From Planctomycetota bacterium (GTDB lineage: Bacteria > Planctomycetota > UBA11346): DNA of 58,472 nt. Positions 32,543 through 42,319 of this stretch are shown here, one piece after another. The notes under the pieces are model-generated. The model saw nothing but the letters and a program-made list of their open reading frames with translations, was not told where the DNA came from and made no database searches. The stretch spans positions 1-58,472 of the forward strand of contig JACCZE010000230.1 of NCBI GenBank assembly GCA_013696105.1, written 5' to 3'. A program made the position numbers and the translations under genes. Numbering within the stretch: the first letter of the stretch is position 1; each line of letters opens with the position of its first letter.

Positions 32543-34207
32543 ATGCGTACCCATGGTCCGACCGCAGAGGGCGTCACTCCCGCCAGCACCGAGCTCGGCG
32601 TGGTCGCCCAGCTCCTGAAACGGCTCGACAAGCTCAACGCCATCGGCATCGCCCTGTCGTCCGAGAAGGACCCCATGCGCCTGGTCGAGCAGATCCTGCT
32701 CGGCGCGAAGGACATCACCAATGCGGACGGTGGCACGGTCTATTCCGTGACCGGCGACGGCACGCTGCGCTTCGAGATGCTGCGCAACGATACCCTCGGC
32801 CTGGTGATGGGCGGTTCGAGCGGCGTGACCATCCCGTACAAGCCGCTGTCGCTGCGCCGCGAGGACGGTTCCGCCAACCACGCCTCGGTGGTCGCGCATG
32901 CGGTGGTCACCGGCGACACGGTGAACATCCCGGACGCTTACCACGCCGACGGCTTCGACTTCGCCGGCACCCGGGCGTTCGACGCCAAGACCGGTTACCG
33001 TTCGACGTCGATGCTGACGGTGCCGATGCGCAACCACGAGGGCGAGATCACCGGTGTGCTGCAGCTCTTGAATGCGCGCACCGACGATGGCACCGTCTGC
33101 CCTTTTTCCGAGTCCGAGCAGCGCCTGGTCGAAAGCCTGGCCTCGCAGGCCGCGACCGCGCTGACCAAGCACGATCTGATCGAGGGCATGCGCAAGCTCT
33201 TCGAGTCGTTCGTCCAGCTCATCGCCACCGCGATCGACGAGAAGTCGCCGTACACCGGCGGCCACTGCCGCCGCGTCCCGGAACTGACCATGATGCTCGC
33301 CGAAGCGGCGGCGCGGGTGAAGGCCGGTCCGCTGGCAGGCTTCAGCATGTCCGAAGGCGACCGCTACGAACTGCACATCGCTTCGTGGATCCACGACTGC
33401 GGGAAGATCACCACGCCCGAATACGTCATGGATAAGGCGACCAAGCTGCAGACCATCTACGATCGCATCGGCCTGATCGAGACGCGCTTCGAGATCATCA
33501 GGCGCGACCTCGAGATCGCATCGCTGCGCGCGCTCGCCACCGCGCCGGCGGACGGACGCGCCGCGATCGAGGCCGACCTGCGCACCGCGCTCGCCGCCCT
33601 GGACGAGGATCTGGCGTTCATCCGCCGCGCCAATACCGGCGGCGAATTCATGAAGCCCGAGGATCAGGAACGCATCCGCCGCGTGGCGATGCGCACGTGG
33701 CGGACCCCGGAAGGGGACCTGCAGCCGCTGCTTACCGACAACGAGGTGCGCAACCTCACCATCGCCAAGGGCACGTTGCTTCCCGAGGAGCGCGCGATCA
33801 TCAACCACCACATGACCGCGACCATCAAGATGCTCGAATCGCTGCCGTATCCCAAGCACCTGCGTCGCGTGCCCGAGTTCGCCGGCGGCCACCACGAGCG
33901 CATGGACGGCAAGGGCTACCCCAAGGGCCTGACGCGCGATCAGATGTCGGTGCAGGCGCGGGTGATGGGCATCGCCGACATCTTCGAGGCGCTGACCGCC
34001 GACGATCGCCCCTACAAGAAGGCCATGAGCCTGAGCATGGCGCTGGGCATCCTCGGTCGCATGGCGGGCGAAGGCCACATCGATCCCGACCTGTTCGACG
34101 TCTTCATCAGCGAAGGCGTGTACCTCGATTACGCGAAGAAGCACCTCAGTCCGGAGCAGATGGATGCGGTCGATCTCGCGAAGATCCCGAATTATCGCAA
34201 GAGTTAG
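32543..34207 (+). CDS. GAF + HD-GYP cyclic-dinucleotide phosphodiesterase
   Basis: GAF (FDAKTGYRSTSMLTVPM), SPYTGGHCRRV, HDCGK, HHERMDGKGYPKG, ADIFEALT.DRPYKK. Confidence 0.92.
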   Translation: MRTHGPTAEGVTPASTELGVVAQLLKRLDKLNAIGIALSSEKDPMRLVEQILLGAKDITNADGGTVYSVTGDGTLRFEMLRNDTLGLVMGGSSGVTIPYKPLSLRREDGSANHASVVAHAVVTGDTVNIPDAYHADGFDFAGTRAFDAKTGYRSTSMLTVPMRNHEGEITGVLQLLNARTDDGTVCPFSESEQRLVESLASQAATALTKHDLIEGMRKLFESFVQLIATAIDEKSPYTGGHCRRVPELTMMLAEAAARVKAGPLAGFSMSEGDRYELHIASWIHDCGKITTPEYVMDKATKLQTIYDRIGLIETRFEIIRRDLEIASLRALATAPADGRAAIEADLRTALAALDEDLAFIRRANTGGEFMKPEDQERIRRVAMRTWRTPEGDLQPLLTDNEVRNLTIAKGTLLPEERAIINHHMTATIKMLESLPYPKHLRRVPEFAGGHHERMDGKGYPKGLTRDQMSVQARVMGIADIFEALTADDRPYKKAMSLSMALGILGRMAGEGHIDPDLFDVFISEGVYLDYAKKHLSPEQMDAVDLAKIPNYRKS

Positions 34208-34373
34208 GGGCGGTGGTCTTGCGAGCGGGTTGGCCACCTTGCCGTGGTGCCTCGCCTCGCAGTCTCCAATGTAGCATTGGACTAGTAGAACCTGGGTCGG
34301 GTGGCGCAACCTGCTGCAGGAAAGTATATTGCCTCTGCAGTCATAGGGAGTCGCGAGGCCCGTAGACATTTCG

Positions 34374-37184
34374 ATGCAAGAAAACACCGCCCACAGGGGA
34401 GACATAGGCATGGACGCCCTCACGGAGGAGATCGATGGGGATCTGCTGCAGAGCTTCGTGGACGGCGAAGCCACCGAGCGGGAACACGCTTTCGCCGGAC
34501 TCGTGCACCGTCATGGCGCCATGGTGGTCGCGGTCGCCCGCAGACATGTCGGCCCGGCCGATGCCGATGACGTCGCGCAGGCGGCCTTCCTCGTGCTCGC
34601 GCGCAAGGCGTCGGCGCTGCGTTCGCATCCCTCGCTCGCGGGGTGGCTGCACCGCGTCGCCCGCAACATCGCCCGCCGGCATCGCGATGCGACCGGGGTG
34701 CGCTCGCGGCGCGAACGTCAGGCGGTGGTCGTGAAGGCCGCAGACGAGCCCGTCGCCTGGCGAGATGACCTCGATGAGGCGCTCGCGCACCTGCCCGAGC
34801 GCTATCGGACGCCATTGGTGCTGCATTACCTCGAGGGCTGCAGCCAGGAGGACGTGGCGCGGACCCTCGATGTGCCCGCGGGCACGCTCGCATCGCTGCT
34901 GAGTCGCGGCCGCGATCTGCTGCGCACCAACCTCGCACGGCGAGGCGTGCGCACGAGCGCGCTCGCGATCCTCGGCGCGGCCGCCCACGACGCCGCTGCT
35001 GCTCAGATACCCGCGTTCGCGCAGCCGCTCGCGGTCGCGATCGTCCGCTCCAAGCCCTTGTCCCCCGGAATCACCTCGCTCGCCAACGGAGAAATCACGA
35101 CCATGGCTCTGCACAACCTGTCGCTCACCTCTGGCATCGCGGCGTCTCTCGTCGCCATCCTCGCCCTCGGTCTATCGTTCGGCCGCGCCTCGGCGCAGGA
35201 GCCGGTGACGCCACCCAAGCCCGCGCCCAAGCCGGCCGCGACCTCCCCGGCCAAGGTCGGCTTCGTGCCCCACATCAAGGTGCTGTCGGACAAGGTCCCC
35301 GACGTGTCCTCGATTGATGCGTGGAAGAAGTCGTACATCACCGAGGGGATGACCGACGAGCAGAAGGGCATGGCGTGCTGGAAGAGCGTGTGGACCTACC
35401 AATACCAGGATGGTCCGCCGTGCGAATTCCTCCAGCACGACGACATCGTGTACGATGCGATCAAGGTCTTCAACGTCTACGGCTACGCCATGTGTGGAAA
35501 CGCCGCGGCGCACATGATGTCGCTCGCACGCAACGTCGGACTCGAAGCGCGCAGCTACGGCATCAACGCGCATAGCGTCGGCGAGCTCAAGTGGGGCGGC
35601 TCCTGGCACCTGCTCGATCCGTCGCTGATCAACTACTTCCCCAAGGCCGACGGCCAGCCCGCGAGCGTGGCCGAGATGACCGCCGGCGTGCAGGAATGGC
35701 TGAAGGCGCATCCCGAATGCATGGACGAGAAGGGCCGCGCCCGGGGCGACAAGATCAAGGAACTGCACGCGCAGGGCGGTTGGATGGGTTGGAAGCAGGG
35801 CCCCGAGATCCTCTCGCGATGCCCGACCTGGGGTGACCGTGGGTGGTACCCGGCGAAGACCCACGGCTGGTACTCGACCATGCAGGAATACGACGGCGGC
35901 GGCGGAGGCACGGGCAACACCCAGTTCCTCTACGAGTACGGAGCGTCCGAAGGGTATCAGGTCGACATCCGTCTGCGTCCGGGCGAGAAGTTGGTGCGCA
36001 ACTGGTCCAACAAGGGCCTGCACGTCAACATGGGCAACGCCAATTGGGGCGCCCCGGGTTGCCTGAACATGACCGTCGATCAGCTGGTCTACAGCCGGGC
36101 CAATGGCGACCTCACCAACGGCCGCGTCGGAAACGGTACCCACGACTACGTCGTTCCGCTCGCCGATGGCACCTTCAAGGCCGGCGCCTGGCAGATGGAC
36201 AACCTCGCCTGCACCGCCGACGACAAGGCCAAGCCGGCGCTCCATGCCAAGAATGCCGCTGATCCCGCGTCTCTGGTGATCCGCATGCCCACCAGCTACG
36301 TCTATCTCACCGGCACCGCCAAGGCTACCGCGGTGGTCGGCAAGGACGGCTCGATCGCAGTCCAGTTCAGCGACAACAACGGTCTGGATTGGAAGGACGT
36401 TTCGACCATCAACCAATCCGGCGAGACCAGCATCGACCTCGCGCCCTTCGCGGTTCGGCGGTACGATTACCTGCTCAAGCTCACCCTGAAGGGCGCGGGC
36501 ACCGGTTTGGATGCACTCACCATCAGCCACGACGTGCAGCATTCGCAGCGCGCCCTCCCGGCGCTGGCCGAGGGTGATAACGCCATCAGCTTCAGCGCGG
36601 GCATGCCGGAACAGACCATCACGGCGGAAGCTGCGACGACCGATGGCCACGAGAAGTACCAGGTCACGCCCAAGGATTTCCACGCGGTCGCCACCGGCTT
36701 GTCGAACTACCGCAAGGTCGAAGGCAAGACCGGCGATCTGACCGTGCCGATCTCGACCCCGGCCGACATGGTCCGACTGCGTTTCGGCGGCTTCTATCGC
36801 AACTGGAGCGACCAGGATTCGTGGGAATACCACGTGTCGTTCGACGATGGCAAGACCTTCAAGAAGGTCTGCGACGCACCCAAGCAGATGGCGGGCTGCA
36901 CCAAATACATCACGGTCAGCGACATCCCCACGGGCACGCGCAAGGCGCTGGTACGCTACGTCGGCAACTCCGCCGCCGCGACCATGCTCTGGAGCTTCCG
37001 CATCGATGCGGATTACGTCGCTCCGAACGCTGGCTTCGCACCGGTCAAGGTGACCTATACGTGGGACGAGAGCGGGCAGGAGAAGACTGACGTCCACATC
37101 GCGACCAAGGCGGAGGACACCTACAAGATCACCTGCGGCGCGAAGACGACGATGAAGTCGATCGCCCTCGAGTTGGCTCCGTAG
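34374..37184 (+). CDS. ECF sigma factor fused via a TM/signal segment to an extracytoplasmic transglutaminase-like domain and a beta-rich region
   Basis: Sigma2 (AFAGLVHRHG, ADDVAQAAFL, LAGWLHRVARN) and sigma4 (LDEALAHLPERYRTPLVLHYLEG...GTLASLLSRGR); hydrophobic segment at aa 244-274 ending ASA-Q; C374/H400/D415 in the pattern CG...HxxxE.....W...D. Confidence 0.85.
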   Translation: MQENTAHRGDIGMDALTEEIDGDLLQSFVDGEATEREHAFAGLVHRHGAMVVAVARRHVGPADADDVAQAAFLVLARKASALRSHPSLAGWLHRVARNIARRHRDATGVRSRRERQAVVVKAADEPVAWRDDLDEALAHLPERYRTPLVLHYLEGCSQEDVARTLDVPAGTLASLLSRGRDLLRTNLARRGVRTSALAILGAAAHDAAAAQIPAFAQPLAVAIVRSKPLSPGITSLANGEITTMALHNLSLTSGIAASLVAILALGLSFGRASAQEPVTPPKPAPKPAATSPAKVGFVPHIKVLSDKVPDVSSIDAWKKSYITEGMTDEQKGMACWKSVWTYQYQDGPPCEFLQHDDIVYDAIKVFNVYGYAMCGNAAAHMMSLARNVGLEARSYGINAHSVGELKWGGSWHLLDPSLINYFPKADGQPASVAEMTAGVQEWLKAHPECMDEKGRARGDKIKELHAQGGWMGWKQGPEILSRCPTWGDRGWYPAKTHGWYSTMQEYDGGGGGTGNTQFLYEYGASEGYQVDIRLRPGEKLVRNWSNKGLHVNMGNANWGAPGCLNMTVDQLVYSRANGDLTNGRVGNGTHDYVVPLADGTFKAGAWQMDNLACTADDKAKPALHAKNAADPASLVIRMPTSYVYLTGTAKATAVVGKDGSIAVQFSDNNGLDWKDVSTINQSGETSIDLAPFAVRRYDYLLKLTLKGAGTGLDALTISHDVQHSQRALPALAEGDNAISFSAGMPEQTITAEAATTDGHEKYQVTPKDFHAVATGLSNYRKVEGKTGDLTVPISTPADMVRLRFGGFYRNWSDQDSWEYHVSFDDGKTFKKVCDAPKQMAGCTKYITVSDIPTGTRKALVRYVGNSAAATMLWSFRIDADYVAPNAGFAPVKVTYTWDESGQEKTDVHIATKAEDTYKITCGAKTTMKSIALELAP

Positions 37185-37321
37185 CGTTCGGGCACCGCAA
37201 ACCATCATCGAACGTCGCCGGTGGCACTGCCGGCGACGGATAGCTCGGCAGGGGTTTCGGCGTGGCGGTCGCAAGAAGGCAACGATCGACCGACCGTTGT
37301 AATGGTCGGACCCGGAATCAG

Positions 37322-37349
37322 GTGCACAACGAGTCAGCGTGATCGTCTA
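37322..37349 (+). promoter_or_regulatory. Possible ECF-type promoter upstream of the small peptide ORF
   Basis: GTGCAC-N16-CGTCTA; a CGTC -10 element and 16-nt spacer are typical of ECF promoters; single site, unverified. Confidence 0.3.
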
Positions 37350-37501
37350 GTATGGTGTGAGCGTGCCGGCGTCCTCGCTGGCCGCAGCTCATTGCGGAGG
37401 GTGCGGAGCCGGGTCACCGGCGCCGTGCCCGTCTGCGCACAACCGAGCATGGCAGGCGATCGCCTCACGCCGCGCTCCACGCGACCCGGAAAGGGCACAC
37501 C

Positions 37502-37636
37502 ATGAAGACCATCTCCACCGAGACCATGCAATCGATCCAGGGCGGCATGCTTTGGTCCGGCCTTTTGTCGGATAATTACCGCTTCACCCCGGCGTGGGCT
37601 GGCCCCGGTAACGTCATTGACATCCGCTGGCTGTGA
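37502..37636 (+). CDS. Double-glycine-leader peptide precursor (bacteriocin/RiPP/pheromone-like), 44 aa
   Basis: MKTISTETMQSIQGG|MLWSGLLSDNYRFTPAWAGPGNVIDIRWL; purine-rich GGAAAGGG RBS 6 nt upstream; hydrophobic residues at -12/-7/-4 and Ser at -11 before GG. Below the ORF-track length cutoff. Confidence 0.7.
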   Translation: MKTISTETMQSIQGGMLWSGLLSDNYRFTPAWAGPGNVIDIRWL

Positions 37637-37824
37637 TGAACCGACGGGGCCGGTGCCGGGGGAGGTTGTCAGCCTGCACCTGCCCGTCCCTGGAATTATA
37701 GAGGATTCAGCCGCCTCTCAGGCGTGTGGCGCATAGTGCCCTGGTGCCGGCAACAGTTCCTGGCGCCAGGGCGTCCAGCATCGCCTCACGCGTGGTGGGC
37801 ACGCCGGGCGCGCGCGGGAGCCGC

Positions 37825-37926
37825 ATGGCGATGCATGAACCGCTTCGCGACCCACCGGGCCACAGCGACGAGCAGGAACTTCCGGAAGAGGAATTTGAAC
37901 ATAGGGCCTCCGCAGCTTGGGATTAA
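37825..37926 (+). CDS. Possible small acidic peptide (33 aa)
   Basis: GGGAG RBS then MAMHEPLRDPPGHSDEQELPEEEFEHRASAAWD; no family recognised. Confidence 0.3.
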   Translation: MAMHEPLRDPPGHSDEQELPEEEFEHRASAAWD

Positions 37927-37936
37927 CCAGCTGATT

Positions 37937-39262
37937 CTAGCGGGTTATCAGCTGCGTCACCTCTGCGAGCTTGGAATCCCTCGACGCGGGGGTGTCGGCT
38001 TCCAGGTTCAGCCGGACGACGGGCTCGGTGTTGGACGCGCGCAGGTTGCACCACCAGGTCGGAAACCGGACGGTGACGCCGTCGAGTTCGCTGACCTTGG
38101 CGTCAGGCATGGAGCGGATGCGATCCATCACCACTTTCGCATCGGGCACCTTGAAGTTGATCTCGCCGGTGTGGTAATACTTCTGCAGGGGAGCCATGAG
38201 CGATGAGAGGCTCTGGCCCTGGGCAATGATGTTCCCCAGAAGGAGGAAGGCATAGAGGCCGGAATCCGCGCCGTAGAAATCGCGGAAGTAATAATGGCCG
38301 CTGAGTTCGCCGGCGAACGACGCGTGGTGCTCCTTCATGGTCTGCTTGATGAAGGTGTGGCCGACCCGGGTTTCGACCGGGGTGCAGCCGAGCGAGTGGA
38401 TGAATTCCGGGACCACCTTCGAACTGCGGAGGTCGTAGACCATCGCGCTCGGGCCCTCGACCGTGGCGAAATGCTTGGCCAGCAGGGCGGTGACCAGATC
38501 GCAGGGCACGATGCCACCGCGCTCGTCGACCAGCGCGCAGCGGTCGCCGTCACCGTCGAAGCCGGCGCCGAAGTCGGCATTCTCTGCTTTCACCCGGGCG
38601 ATGAGGTCCTTGAGATTCTCGGCCTTCAGCGGATTGGCCTCGTGCCGCGGGAAGCGACCGTCGGGGTCGAAGTACATGGGAATGAGGGTGATGCCGGTGA
38701 GCTTGGGCAGCAGCGCCTGGAACATCGTGCCGATGATGCCGTTGCCGCCGTCGACCACGACCTTCAGTGGTCGGGTTGGCGTGAACAGCTTGGCCAGCAG
38801 CTGCGCATAGGCGTCGATGGTGACCGCCTCCTCGACGCGACCTCCGTCCTTCTTCATCACGTTCTTCGAGCGGGCGACCTCCTCGATCTCCTCCATGCCG
38901 GTCCCGGCGCCGACCGGCTTGAAACCAGGCGCGGTGATCTTGACACCGCCGTAGGCGGCCGGGTTGTGGCTGGCGGTGATCTGGGCCCCGCCCGCGGTAT
39001 CCAGGTGGTGCATGGCGAACGTGACGCCGGGAGTCGACAGCATGCCGACGTCGACGACCACCACTCCGGCATCGACGAGGCCGTTGATGAATGCGGCTTT
39101 GAGCATCGGCCCGGACACGCGCATGTCGCGTCCGACCGTGTATCGCTTGCCCGCGAGCCCGAGGACCTGGGCGGTGGCGTTGCCGATGCGGTAGGCGAGG
39201 TCTTCGTCCAGTTCCTGGGGATAGAGGCCGCGGATATCGTAGGCTTTGAAGGGATCGGGCAT
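37937..39262 (-). CDS. Phosphomannomutase/phosphoglucomutase
   Basis: FKAYDIRG, GRDMR, ITASHNP, FDGDGDR, GELSGH, LRASNTEP; start MPDPFK at 39262. Confidence 0.95.
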   Translation of the reverse strand: MPDPFKAYDIRGLYPQELDEDLAYRIGNATAQVLGLAGKRYTVGRDMRVSGPMLKAAFINGLVDAGVVVVDVGMLSTPGVTFAMHHLDTAGGAQITASHNPAAYGGVKITAPGFKPVGAGTGMEEIEEVARSKNVMKKDGGRVEEAVTIDAYAQLLAKLFTPTRPLKVVVDGGNGIIGTMFQALLPKLTGITLIPMYFDPDGRFPRHEANPLKAENLKDLIARVKAENADFGAGFDGDGDRCALVDERGGIVPCDLVTALLAKHFATVEGPSAMVYDLRSSKVVPEFIHSLGCTPVETRVGHTFIKQTMKEHHASFAGELSGHYYFRDFYGADSGLYAFLLLGNIIAQGQSLSSLMAPLQKYYHTGEINFKVPDAKVVMDRIRSMPDAKVSELDGVTVRFPTWWCNLRASNTEPVVRLNLEADTPASRDSKLAEVTQLITR

Positions 39263-39276
39263 GGGAGGATGGGGGC

Positions 39277-39372
39277 CGGTGGTTGGTGGATGGTGGTCGG
39301 TGGTCAGGAGCGTACGGACGTCCCTGGTTGGTACGGGCCGACGGGTGAACCACAAACCACAAACCACCAACC
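39277..39372. repeat. Inverted array of 7-bp GGTGGT(T)/AACCAC(A/C) repeats in the divergent pgm-purL spacer
   Basis: ggtggttggtggatggtggtcggtggtc ... aaccacaaaccacaaaccaccaacc. Confidence 0.75.
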
Positions 39373-39442
39373 CGGCGCCCCTCCGGCGCCACCCCGCCAC
39401 GACTTGCCGCCCCCACCGGCGCTCCACACTACCGCCGCACCC

Positions 39443-42319
39443 ATGGCAACCCATCGCATCGACATCGTCGCGGCCTCGCCAGCGACGGACCACCACCTGG
39501 CGCACGAAGCGAAACTGTTGGGGCTGGACCACATCCGGGATATCCGCCGCAGTCGCTATTACCTGGTGCAGGGGCAGGTGGACGTCCGCGCTGCGACCAG
39601 GCTGGCTGAGACCCTGCTCTGCGACCCCGTGATCGAGCGCGCCGTTCTGACACCGCCTCCGGTGCAGGGTCGTCGGGTCATCGAGGTCCAGCGCAAGACC
39701 GGGGTCATGGATCCCGTCGAAGCCTCGATCATCAAGGGCGCCGCCGATCTCGGCATCACGCTGACCCTGGTGCGGGTCGGTACCCGCGTCGAGCTGGCTG
39801 GCGGAAGCGACGACGATCTCGCGCGACTGGCCTGGAAGTCCCTCGCCAACCAGGCGATCGAAGAGGTCGCCATCGACCCGTCCGAACCGGTGCGCTTGAA
39901 GGCTCCCGGCGGCACCGACCGCCACCCGCGGACCGAGGTCGATATCGCCAAGCTCGACGATGCCGGATTGGTCGAGCTGTCGCGAGCCGGCACGCTCAGC
40001 CTCACCCTCGAGGAGATGCGCGCGATCCAGGAGCACTTCCGCGCCGCTGGACGCATACCCACCGACATCGAGCTTGAGTCCCTCGCCCAGACCTGGTCCG
40101 AGCATTGCGTGCACAAGACGCTCAAAGGCGTGGTCGAGTATACCGGACCGACGGGGGTCGACGGCCCGACCGCGACCATCGTCATCGACAACCTGCTCAA
40201 GCAGACCATCGCGCGCGCAACCACCGAGCTGGCTGCCCCCTGGTGCCTGTCGGTCTTCAAGGACAACAGCGGGGTCATCGCCTTCGATGACCACTACGGC
40301 GTCTGCATCAAGGTAGAAACCCACAACCGGCCATCGGCGATCGAGCCCTACGGCGGCGCGAACACCGGTCTAGGAGGGGTGGTCCGCGATGTCATCGGCA
40401 CCGGCGTCGGCGCCAAGCCCATCTTCAGCACCGACGTCTTCTGCTTCGGCGAGCTCGATGCGGATGCGGCCGATCTTCCGCCCGGCACCATCCACCCGCG
40501 GCGCCTGATGCGCGGCGTGGTGTCCGGAGTACGCGACTACGGCAATCGCATGGGCATCCCCACGGTCAACGGCGCGATCCGCTTCGATCGCCGGTTCGTC
40601 GGCAATCCCCTGGTCTTCTGCGGCACGGCCGGACTGATCCCGCGCGCGGCGGTCGAGAAGGCGGCACTGGTCGGCGACCACATCCTGGTGATCGGCGGCC
40701 GCACCGGTCGCGACGGCATCCATGGCGCGACCTTCAGCAGCGCCGAGCTGACCCACGAATCCGAAGTGGTGTCCAGCGGCGCGGTGCAGATCGGCAACGC
40801 CATCGAAGAGAAGAAGGTCCTCGACACCATGCTCCAGGCCCGCGATGCGGGCTGCTTCAGCGCCATCACCGACTGCGGCGCGGGCGGGCTATCGAGCGCC
40901 GTCGGCGAGATGGCGGGCGAACGCGGATGCCATGTCCACCTCGATCGCGTGCCGCTGAAGTACGCCGGACTGAGCTACACCGAGATCTGGATCAGCGAGT
41001 CGCAGGAGCGCATGGTCGCCGCGGTTCCCGAAGCGAAACTGAAGCAGGCCCTCGCGATCTTCGCCGCCGAAGGCGTGGATGCGACCGCGATCGGCATCGT
41101 CACGGATACCCACCGCCTGGAGCTGTTCTACCACGGTGAACAGGTCGGCGATCTCGCGATGCACTTCCTGCACGACGGCGTCCCGCGGCTCAAACGCACG
41201 GCGCGTTTCACGCCGCACGCCGAAGCCGACGCGCACCTGCCGCCGTGCGCGGACATCGCCGACGCGCTCGCGCGCGTGCTCTCGCGGCCGAATGTCGCAA
41301 GCAAGGAATGGGTGATCCGCCAGTACGACCACGAGGTCCAGGCGGGTTCGATCGTCAAGCCGCTGGTCGGTGCGACCCACGACGGACCCAGCGATGGCGC
41401 GGTGGTCGCTCCGCTGGTGGGGAATAACCGCGGGGTCGCGGTGGCCTGCGGCCTGAACACCAACTTCAGCGACTGGGACGCCTACCACGCCGCCGCAGCC
41501 GGCATCGAAGAAGCGCTGCGCAACCTGGTCTGCGTCGGCGCGCCGCTCGGGCAGGTGGCGATCCTCGACAATTTCAGCTGGGCCAAGTGCACGGATCCGG
41601 AAGTGTTCGGCGCGCTCGTGCGCGCGTGCCAGGCGTGCTACGACCTGGCGATGTACTTCGGTACGCCCTTCATCTCGGGCAAGGACAGCCTCTCGAACGA
41701 GTTCACCTACCACGGCCTCACCATCCGCATTCCGCATACGCTTCTGATCACCGCGATGACGGTGATGCCGGACATCGCCAAGTCGGTGACCATGGATGCG
41801 AAACGCGCGGGCGACTCGGTGATCCTCGTCGGCCGCACGCGCAACGAGCTCGGCGGCAGCGAGTACCTGGCGATGCTCGGCGTCCCCGGCGGCATCGTGC
41901 CCAAGCTCGATCGCGCCCTCTCGCTGCCGATGCTCGAGGCCGTATCGGCGTGCTGCCAGGCCGGCGTGGTCTCGGCCGCGCACGATTGCTCCGATGGCGG
42001 CCTCGGCGTCACCCTCGCCGAGATGGCGTTCTCCGGCGGCCTGGGCATGGACATCGACGCGGACCGCGCGCCTCGCGACGGCATCGCGCGACTCGATCAG
42101 CTGCTGTTCAGCGAATCCAACAGCCGCATCGTCATCACCGTCCCCGCAGCGCGACTGGCCGAGGCCGAGCGGCTGCTCGCGGATGTCCCGCATGCGGTCA
42201 TCGGGCAGGTCACCGCCGGGCCGCAGCTGGTGATCCGCGGCCTCGGTGGCGCCTGCCGCGCCCCGCTGGCGGATCTGAAGGCGGCGTGGCAGCGACCGTT
42301 GAGCATCATGGAGGGGTGA
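39443..42319 (+). CDS. purL: Phosphoribosylformylglycinamidine synthase subunit PurL with fused N-terminal PurS-like domains
   Basis: QTWSEHCVHK, KVETHNRPSAIEPYGGA, GGRTGRDGIHGA, DCGAGG, SESQERM, QYDHEV, FISGKDS, HDCSDGG; N-terminal LLCDPV and GVMDP PurS-like repeats; no PurQ domain. Confidence 0.95.
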   Translation: MATHRIDIVAASPATDHHLAHEAKLLGLDHIRDIRRSRYYLVQGQVDVRAATRLAETLLCDPVIERAVLTPPPVQGRRVIEVQRKTGVMDPVEASIIKGAADLGITLTLVRVGTRVELAGGSDDDLARLAWKSLANQAIEEVAIDPSEPVRLKAPGGTDRHPRTEVDIAKLDDAGLVELSRAGTLSLTLEEMRAIQEHFRAAGRIPTDIELESLAQTWSEHCVHKTLKGVVEYTGPTGVDGPTATIVIDNLLKQTIARATTELAAPWCLSVFKDNSGVIAFDDHYGVCIKVETHNRPSAIEPYGGANTGLGGVVRDVIGTGVGAKPIFSTDVFCFGELDADAADLPPGTIHPRRLMRGVVSGVRDYGNRMGIPTVNGAIRFDRRFVGNPLVFCGTAGLIPRAAVEKAALVGDHILVIGGRTGRDGIHGATFSSAELTHESEVVSSGAVQIGNAIEEKKVLDTMLQARDAGCFSAITDCGAGGLSSAVGEMAGERGCHVHLDRVPLKYAGLSYTEIWISESQERMVAAVPEAKLKQALAIFAAEGVDATAIGIVTDTHRLELFYHGEQVGDLAMHFLHDGVPRLKRTARFTPHAEADAHLPPCADIADALARVLSRPNVASKEWVIRQYDHEVQAGSIVKPLVGATHDGPSDGAVVAPLVGNNRGVAVACGLNTNFSDWDAYHAAAAGIEEALRNLVCVGAPLGQVAILDNFSWAKCTDPEVFGALVRACQACYDLAMYFGTPFISGKDSLSNEFTYHGLTIRIPHTLLITAMTVMPDIAKSVTMDAKRAGDSVILVGRTRNELGGSEYLAMLGVPGGIVPKLDRALSLPMLEAVSACCQAGVVSAAHDCSDGGLGVTLAEMAFSGGLGMDIDADRAPRDGIARLDQLLFSESNSRIVITVPAARLAEAERLLADVPHAVIGQVTAGPQLVIRGLGGACRAPLADLKAAWQRPLSIMEG

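Follow-up and report, generated by a model that had tools for sequence, protein, structure and literature searches.

A double-glycine-leader peptide gene in a planctomycete genome, probably encoded in trans to its PCAT exporter and preceded by the same promoter-like motif

Does a 44-codon open reading frame lying among housekeeping and regulatory genes encode a secreted peptide and, if it does, which transporter would carry the product out of the cell? The question was raised by a stretch of 58,472 nucleotides from a Planctomycetota bacterium (assembly GCA_013696105.1, contig JACCZE010000230.1, positions 1 to 58,472 of the forward strand; hereafter the window), for which an initial annotation had proposed an overlooked gene at 37502-37636 (+) for a peptide with a double-glycine (GG) leader. 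Peptides of this kind and their exporters, peptidase-containing ABC transporters (PCATs), are textbook matter in Firmicutes, Enterobacteriaceae, Bacteroidota and cyanobacteria. A search of the literature on GG peptides, bacteriocins and class II microcins found no description of them for Planctomycetota, and the main text of one account of class II microcins contains no mention of "planctomyc", with supplements that may list such taxa (PMC12219008). We consider it likely, with a probability of roughly 0.85, that 37502-37636 is a real gene and that its 44-aa prepeptide is a substrate of the single PCAT of this genome, encoded in trans on another contig, C140.

The assembly that carries the window (G000) comprises 4.33 Mb in 481 contigs, with 66.9% G+C and an estimated completeness of 79%, and the sequencing runs that hold window DNA are labelled as soil metagenome. 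Run X1 covers the ORF without differences and may be the source of the window DNA, and runs X2 and X3 have no coverage over it. The relatives named below are G001 and G002, which belong to the same genus as G000, and G015, which belongs to another genus of the same family.

Translation bears out the ORF as it had been claimed, with 44 codons starting at an ATG and followed by a TGA stop (37634-37636). The prepeptide consists of the leader MKTISTETMQSIQGG (37502-37546, + strand, 15 aa), with cleavage predicted after Gly15, and the core MLWSGLLSDNYRFTPAWAGPGNVIDIRWL (37547-37633, + strand, 29 aa), the predicted mature secreted peptide. As had also been claimed, the ORF lies in the gap that follows an ECF-sigma fusion, the 752 bp between the stop of that 936-aa fusion (37184) and the end of a minus-strand phosphoglucomutase-type gene (37937). 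The start is constrained from upstream, the initiating Met being codon 48 of a 91-codon open frame in which no ATG, GTG or TTG precedes it. The ribosome-binding site of the initial annotation corresponds to a purine-rich, Shine-Dalgarno-like GGAAAGGG at 37488-37495 (+) that ends 6 nt before the ATG and is, taken alone, weak evidence; AGAAGGAA is found 5 nt before the ATG of a 54-aa peptide gene on C140. The exact 44-aa sequence is present in a public protein collection (P0001) and in the ESM Atlas, so some gene caller must have predicted it earlier.

The neighbours of the gene encode the ECF-sigma fusion, a GAF-HD protein, a phosphoglucomutase-type protein and a PurL-type protein (FGAM synthase), and are housekeeping or regulatory in character. 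The fusion (34374-37184, + strand) has N-terminal ECF-type Sigma70_r2 and r4 domains followed by a long extension. That the window holds neither a transporter nor a modifying enzyme for the peptide agrees with our searches, which found no C39 domain in the window and, in the annotation of the neighbours, no modifying enzyme, receptor kinase or immunity gene adjoining the prepeptide gene. Nor does a histidine kinase or response regulator adjoin it, the partners looked for beside a ComC-type pheromone gene.

Base composition and codon usage are those of a coding sequence, more clearly in one part of the ORF than in the other. The ORF has GC1/GC2/GC3 values of 0.44/0.51/0.80 (GC3 is 0.86 in the flanking genes), and this gene-like pattern is absent from its other two frames. 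On a codon log-odds score trained on 1,057 long ORFs it reaches 0.317 bits per codon, which places it at the 18th percentile among true coding windows; of the genome's 4,922 ATG-started ORFs with 38-52 aa, just 1.9% attain that value. Among the 13 ORFs of at least 25 aa in the gap, three score positive, namely the prepeptide ORF, the shadow antisense to it and a minus-strand ORF of 38 aa. Taken by parts, the leader scores 0.721 and the core 0.122 bits per codon, the latter a weak value.

GG leaders span about 15-30 aa from the initiator Met, terminate in Gly-Gly (or Gly-Ala/Ser) and carry hydrophobic residues at positions -4, -7 and -12 (and -15) from the cut site. The proposal that the window leader fits the consensus cleaved by C39 peptidases holds good, with I12, M9, I4 and M1 at -4, -7, -12 and -15 and a terminal GG. 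When scored with TIGR01847, the NCBIfam profile for bacteriocin-type signal sequences, as the initial annotation had suggested, the leader obtained 15.7 bits, which is exactly the curated cut-off. Across the six frames of G000 this cut-off is reached at two places, the present ORF and C140:13712-13756, both with 15.7 bits. It is reached in two of 61 genomes, G000 and G050 (a single further place among the 60 relatives), so the empirical false-positive rate of the profile lies far under its nominal E of 0.23 per genome. Taken singly, the leader scores are marginal, with per-genome E values of 0.12-0.23.

An independent profile, an HMM made from six G015 leaders only, was run on 82,735 stop-to-stop six-frame segments of G000. 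The top rank among the 82,735 went to the window ORF with 14.0 bits, and the second to the 54-aa peptide of C140 with 12.9 bits; the third-ranking segment had 9.6 bits, and a 53-aa peptide from the same C140 locus came eighth with 7.8 bits. In a whole-peptide search of G000 the best non-self match of the prepeptide was again the C140 54-aa peptide, aligned from residue 1, and the two leaders are 60% identical. The ten GG leaders of the window, C140 and G015 are all 15 residues long and hydrophobic in the same four columns (nine were aligned, and the seventh leader of G015 was added by reading its sequence), and the window leader keeps every position common to the nine transporter-linked leaders. 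A nine-leader model, which is circular for its own members, was run over 48 family genomes and reached scores from 22.9 bits upwards in G000 and G015 only, with 14.8 and 13.3 bits in two other genomes. Two Pfam models fell short of their cut-offs: Pfam ComC (PF03047) gave 14.7 bits on the leader only, against a cut-off of 20.4, and Pfam Bacteriocin_IIc stayed below its cut-off on the prepeptide. The nearest ESM Atlas clusters carry the names "Excreted peptide", "Peptide pheromone VP1" and "Bacteriocin-type signal sequence", at scores of 0.81-0.86, under the lead level of 0.9. Judged by these comparisons, the leader is more than a chance resemblance, and the prepeptide has the sequence features that were tested for in a GG-leader PCAT substrate.

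A genome-wide search for a C39 ABC transporter, likewise suggested at the outset, returned a single PF03412 match in G000, which lies in an ABC protein of 833 aa on C140 and scores 123.7 bits; since the assembly is 79% complete, a second transporter could exist. The protein aligns over residues 31-741 with PCAT1 of Clostridium thermocellum (PDB 4ry2; E 1.4e-155), its closest solved relative, the catalytic motifs DCGAA and HF being in register, and also matches ComA (8hf4; E 7.8e-124). Q16, C22, H99 and D115 are invariant in an alignment of six planctomycete C39 domains, and by these signatures the exporter looks functional. A 428-aa HlyD protein is encoded directly after it on the same strand, and 15 OEP-family matches lie elsewhere in G000.

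The C140 locus (L004 7373-13648) is complete, with a 601-aa ECF-sigma fusion divergent from the 833-aa PCAT and the HlyD gene and, on the strand of the latter two and directly downstream of them, two GG-peptide genes, the kind of paralogous GG-leader ORFs for which a search had been proposed. The first, the 54-aa peptide, consists of MKTISNEDMSKVEGG and a 39-aa core and lies 3.4 kb from the only C39 domain; the second, after the 54-aa gene, is the 53-aa peptide, MKNIPESEMVHIAGG followed by a GxxxG-rich core. An orthologous PCAT in G015 is 77% identical, and the order there is a C39-ABC protein of 827 aa, an HlyD protein of 428 aa, the GG-leader genes and an OEP/TolC-type gene. The GG-leader genes of G015 (L046 6928-8460, - strand) comprise six that start with ATG and a seventh, first in the array, that probably starts with GTG. 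Across 37 family genomes, G000 included, a C39 match above 100 bits in a transporter-length frame was found in G000 and G015 only. The presence of a single intact PCAT with an HlyD partner on C140 lends support to the suggestion that the window peptide would be exported in trans by a C39 ABC transporter.

The complex of the C140 C39 domain with the 44-aa prepeptide was predicted in three runs alongside three controls. It scored 0.57 (0.60, 0.57 and 0.51 in the individual runs) against 0.06 for the best control, with a partner pLDDT of at least 51 and a contact agreement of at least 83%. In the calibration of the tool, 58 of 80 solved complexes and two of 110 mismatches came up to the mark; among those that did so at 0.60 or under were seven of the 80 solved complexes and both of the mismatches. 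The prediction is weak support for binding, and since solved PCAT-substrate complexes exist, its pass may reflect likeness to these rather than binding.

A second tie between the peptide gene and the exporter goes beyond what the initial annotation had proposed. Alignment of the ECF-PCAT intergenic regions of G000 and G015 yields one conserved block, GGTGCA-N17-CGTC followed by [CT]A.T and oriented toward the PCAT, and in the C140 copy the CGTC ends 138 nt before the listed PCAT start. The window has the bipartite motif GGTGCA-N17-CGTC-TAGT at 37321-37351 (+), oriented toward the prepeptide gene, with its core GGTGCA-N17-CGTC at 37321-37347 and the end of CGTC 154 nt before the ATG. The window copy and C140:17822-17849 (-) agree at 17 fixed bases, AGGTGCACAA-N11-GATCGTC, while their flanks differ, which suggests that the motif has been maintained. 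The exact pattern occurs at two places in G000, both strands considered, where composition would lead one to expect 2.6e-4. Searched for in 61 genomes, a looser version, GGTGCANA-N15-CGTCYANT, has three sites, which lie upstream of the prepeptide ORF and of the PCATs of G000 and G015, a count that is not fully blind since one position was relaxed from W to N after the window site was known; a reversed-pattern control gave two matches.

The architecture of the motif, a -35-like hexamer, a 17-nt spacer and a CGTC -10 element, is one that we take to be that of an ECF-type promoter, and together with its position it suggests a putative ECF-sigma-type promoter. Position likewise points to the fusion divergent from the PCAT operon as the sigma factor that would read it. 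This fusion is 601 aa long in G000 and its counterpart in G015 561 aa, with 31% identity over the full length (E 4e-43). In a phylum sample its C-terminal domain was found in G000 itself and in none of 300 other genomes; G015 is apparently outside this sample, and its fusion matches that of C140 in pairwise comparison. Sigma factors abound in G000: region 2 of sigma-70 is matched 44 times, and roughly one match in four falls in an open frame of more than 480 aa. A specific link between the 936-aa fusion of the window and the 601-aa fusion of C140 was considered and rejected, as the two have only the sigma domain in common. A scan for sigma-70 promoters gave no sites, and Rfam gave no matches over 37100-38000 at E up to 1.

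Conservation of the gene was looked for in closer relatives. In G001 and G002 the prepeptide gene is absent from the syntenic site: the G001 flanks are syntenic and the gap holds enolase-superfamily and amidohydrolase genes, and in G002 a histidine kinase gene and a GAF-HD gene adjoin the phosphoglucomutase gene. Since neither genome has the PCAT, the leader type or the motif, the whole GG-peptide system appears to be lineage-specific within the genus.

The core is, as initially described, rich in Trp and free of Cys, with three Trp and no Cys in 29 residues. Its computed mass is about 3,350 Da and its pI 5.7, and it is short, neutral and aromatic-rich, without a membrane-spanning stretch. The prepeptide had no significant match in 60 related genomes (best E 0.034), and a weak match in G015 was rejected, falling as it did within an unrelated 120-aa ORF. 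A word search of 5.8 billion proteins recovered the prepeptide itself only, and HMMER against 1.84 billion representatives recovered itself and 17 long repeat proteins (18 entries at E 0.001 or below). The 17 were rejected as homologs of the core: their scores are summed over repeats, the individual stretches scoring at most 18.2 bits and mostly 2-8 bits. Six of them were inspected. Five (P0003, P0008, P0014, P0015 and P0017) consist of regularly spaced RF[IT]PAWAG, VHPRVGG and SSPRGRG units and look like what we assume to be multi-frame translations of CRISPR-like repeat arrays, and the sixth is a repeat-domain protein. Spurious CRISPR-type entries of this sort can give misleading summed HMMER scores for short queries.

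Conservation of the core is an expectation of the initial annotation that was disappointed, no frame-preserving homolog being found in 60 relatives or in public protein collections, an outcome that it had named as counting against the gene. The core is, on these searches, a new sequence unrelated to known ones. Its isolation counts for little, since the transporter-linked C140 53-aa peptide is a singleton without homolog too, and since no similarity was found among the ten GG-peptide cores of the window, C140 and G015.

Two explanations compete with a functional gene. One is that the leader and the promoter are truly PCAT-related and the core is the drifted remnant of a decaying copy that yields no active peptide. 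The drop in codon score from leader to core would fit such a remnant, as would a singleton core with no immunity or receptor gene found nearby, and the retention of two peptide genes on C140, against seven in G015, fits erosion of the system in this lineage. Even so, the frame is intact, the leader has lost none of the positions common to the nine transporter-linked leaders, the fixed bases of the motif are identical between differing flanks as if maintained, and singleton cores are normal here, the C140 53-aa peptide being an example; we regard decay as decidedly improbable. The other, a random open frame in G+C-rich intergenic DNA that happens to begin with a leader-like 15-mer and from which nothing is made, is more improbable again, for although the leader E-values are marginal, the core lacks homologs, the ORF is missing at this site in both same-genus genomes and spurious ORFs abound in high-GC DNA (55 ORFs of at least 25 aa overlap 35000-40000), chance would have to produce at once the top genome-wide rank against the independent G015 leader profile, a similarity, aligned from the first residue, to the peptide encoded next to the single PCAT, a coding-type GC3 with a codon score in the top 1.9%, and an exact 17-base bipartite match to the PCAT operon block, 154 nt upstream and correctly oriented.

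The preferred reading is that the 44-aa prepeptide is a genuine PCAT substrate. Its leader, the transporter and the motif are features of the DNA itself, from which we infer co-regulation, cleavage and export along the following lines. Transcription would proceed from GGTGCA-N17-CGTC as an ECF-sigma-type promoter that also precedes the PCAT-HlyD-peptide operon, so that cargo and exporter would be switched on together, most likely by the ECF-sigma fusion divergent from that operon. The product carries a 15-aa GG leader of the length and pattern of the nine transporter-linked peptides of G000 and G015. By analogy with the PCAT1, ComA and CvaB families, cleavage after Gly15 would be the work of the C39 domain, with its intact Gln, Cys, His and Asp residues, and the ABC/HlyD pair would export the 29-aa core together with an outer-membrane factor. 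The result would be a compact candidate regulon of one ECF-sigma fusion, the PCAT/HlyD pair and three peptides. More generally, when a cargo gene lies at a distance from the gene of its exporter, a promoter motif common to the two can link them in addition to the leader, which offers a practical route to orphan secreted peptides in metagenome-assembled genomes.

Set against known systems, the system itself is of an ordinary kind, while its host and layout are unusual, the unusual points being a cargo encoded in trans, a promoter motif that ties it to the exporter, and the Planctomycetota host. Class II microcins, as the main text of one account presents them, are exported by a PCAT together with an MFP (membrane-fusion protein) and TolC, carry a GG signal of 15-18 aa and have mature masses of about 5-10 kDa (PMC12219008). 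Measured against the same account (PMC12219008), the window peptide resembles them (microcin V, with CvaB, CvaA and TolC, among them) in its 15-aa N-terminal GG signal, in cleavage and export from a two-membrane cell by a PCAT together with an MFP and an outer-membrane factor, here predicted from the genes, and in unmodified, highly diverse cores. The corresponding machinery in G000 would be the adjacent PCAT and HlyD genes of C140 and one of the OEP matches elsewhere. Unlike the class II microcins as described there, the predicted core is of 3.35 kDa rather than roughly 5-10 kDa and falls outside their size range (PMC12219008). Further differences are that no adjacent immunity gene was found, that the gene is on another contig than the exporter, that the host is a planctomycete, and that an ECF-type promoter motif is common to cargo and exporter. 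Bacteroidetocins, on the same description, are likewise small and PCAT-dependent, with a 15-aa GG signal, and occur outside Enterobacteriaceae, but are encoded near their PCAT, unlike the window gene (PMC12219008); they share no sequence similarity with it and belong to another phylum.

In size the window peptide is closer to the GG pheromones of Gram-positive bacteria than to class II microcins. The ComC and BlpC pheromones of streptococci and lactobacilli likewise have a GG leader, are exported by a PCAT (of the ComA or BlpA type) and measure some 17-30 aa when mature; they differ in that the window gene has an ECF-sigma fusion as its neighbour and a two-membrane host cell. The PCAT1/CtA system belongs to a monoderm, has no HlyD or outer-membrane partner, and has its cargo CtA beside the transporter, unlike the window case. 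For the regulation, the nearest parallel is MibX/MibW, an ECF sigma/anti-sigma pair that controls microbisporicin with auto-induction, as outlined in one source (PMC4973701). There too a ribosomal peptide and genes for its export or biosynthesis are placed under an ECF sigma factor (PMC4973701), an arrangement that we infer for the present system. MibX and MibW are, in that outline, separate proteins of an actinomycete lanthipeptide cluster (PMC4973701), whereas here the sigma domain is fused to a membrane-spanning protein.

What the peptide would do outside the cell is less certain than its export. A narrow-spectrum antagonistic peptide, like the class II microcins, has something approaching an even chance; the hydrophobic, bacteriocin-like character of both C140 cores speaks for an antagonistic system. 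A signalling role is a reasonable possibility that stays plausible given a core that is short, uncharged and without a membrane-spanning stretch, and given the lack of an evident immunity gene; some other role, or none, seems unlikely. One specific form of signalling can be set out, in which the peptide would be the diffusible signal of a sensing circuit with a membrane-spanning ECF sigma fusion at its centre, in place of a two-component system. The sigma fusion divergent from the PCAT would read the motif and drive both the exporter and the distant peptide gene, and would itself be activated from outside by the exported peptide. Additionally, another ECF-sigma fusion, whose outer domain measures 650 aa, is encoded directly upstream of the peptide gene, a placement that could in this case reflect a sensor-ligand pairing; with 44 sigma-70 region 2 matches in the genome, a sigma gene would by rough estimate border only about 2% of intergenic regions. 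We hold this circuit to be improbable. If true, it would be a one-protein quorum-sensing loop in Planctomycetota.

Several observations on the surrounding DNA may be added. Between the convergent peptide gene and minus-strand genes lies a G+C-rich hairpin (37738-37772, no strand assigned) with a stem of some 13-14 bp and a 9-nt loop. The fold of 37630-37800 has an MFE of -85 kcal/mol (z = -2.05), with six of 200 shuffles at least as stable. The hairpin has no U-tract and may, on this modelled fold, act as a terminator; a consensus scan for intrinsic terminators gave no sites.

The 38-aa minus-strand ORF of the gap, MFKFLFRKFLLVAVARW..., is located at 37786-37902 (-), where it follows closely on the phosphoglucomutase-type gene and faces the peptide gene in convergent orientation. 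It has GGAGG 4 nt before its ATG and coding-like usage (0.337 bits per codon, GC3 0.82). No Pfam family matches it and no significant relative was found in 40 genomes, on which ground it was rejected as a conserved partner of the prepeptide. Its product could be a small membrane-associated protein; that it might be an immunity factor is pure speculation.

The 936-aa ECF-sigma fusion belongs to an expanded family, G001 having 13 further DNA matches to this stretch on eight other contigs at 64-81% identity. At window positions 32543-37936, compared with G001:C125 and G002:C9, the gene content between the GAF-HD and phosphoglucomutase-type genes differs in all three genomes: an ECF fusion and the peptide gene in G000, an ECF fusion followed by the enolase-superfamily and amidohydrolase genes in G001, and the histidine kinase in G002. 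On this comparison of gene content, the interval is a local hotspot of gene turnover.

The two exporter loci have features of their own. The end of the C140 locus has two inverted repeats at about L004 7230-7350, and its peptide region has a G+C content of 0.55-0.58 against about 0.67 for the contig. In the GG-peptide array of G015, three Pro-rich cores are visibly related to each other. Also in G015, L046 1-2200 is low in G+C (0.53-0.63 against about 0.75) and contains repeated cassettes, including several short ORFs that share the end ...PGDAGR and two near-identical copies of an ORF of about 120 aa; the region looks like a series of exchangeable cassettes, for instance of genes for immunity or toxin tips.
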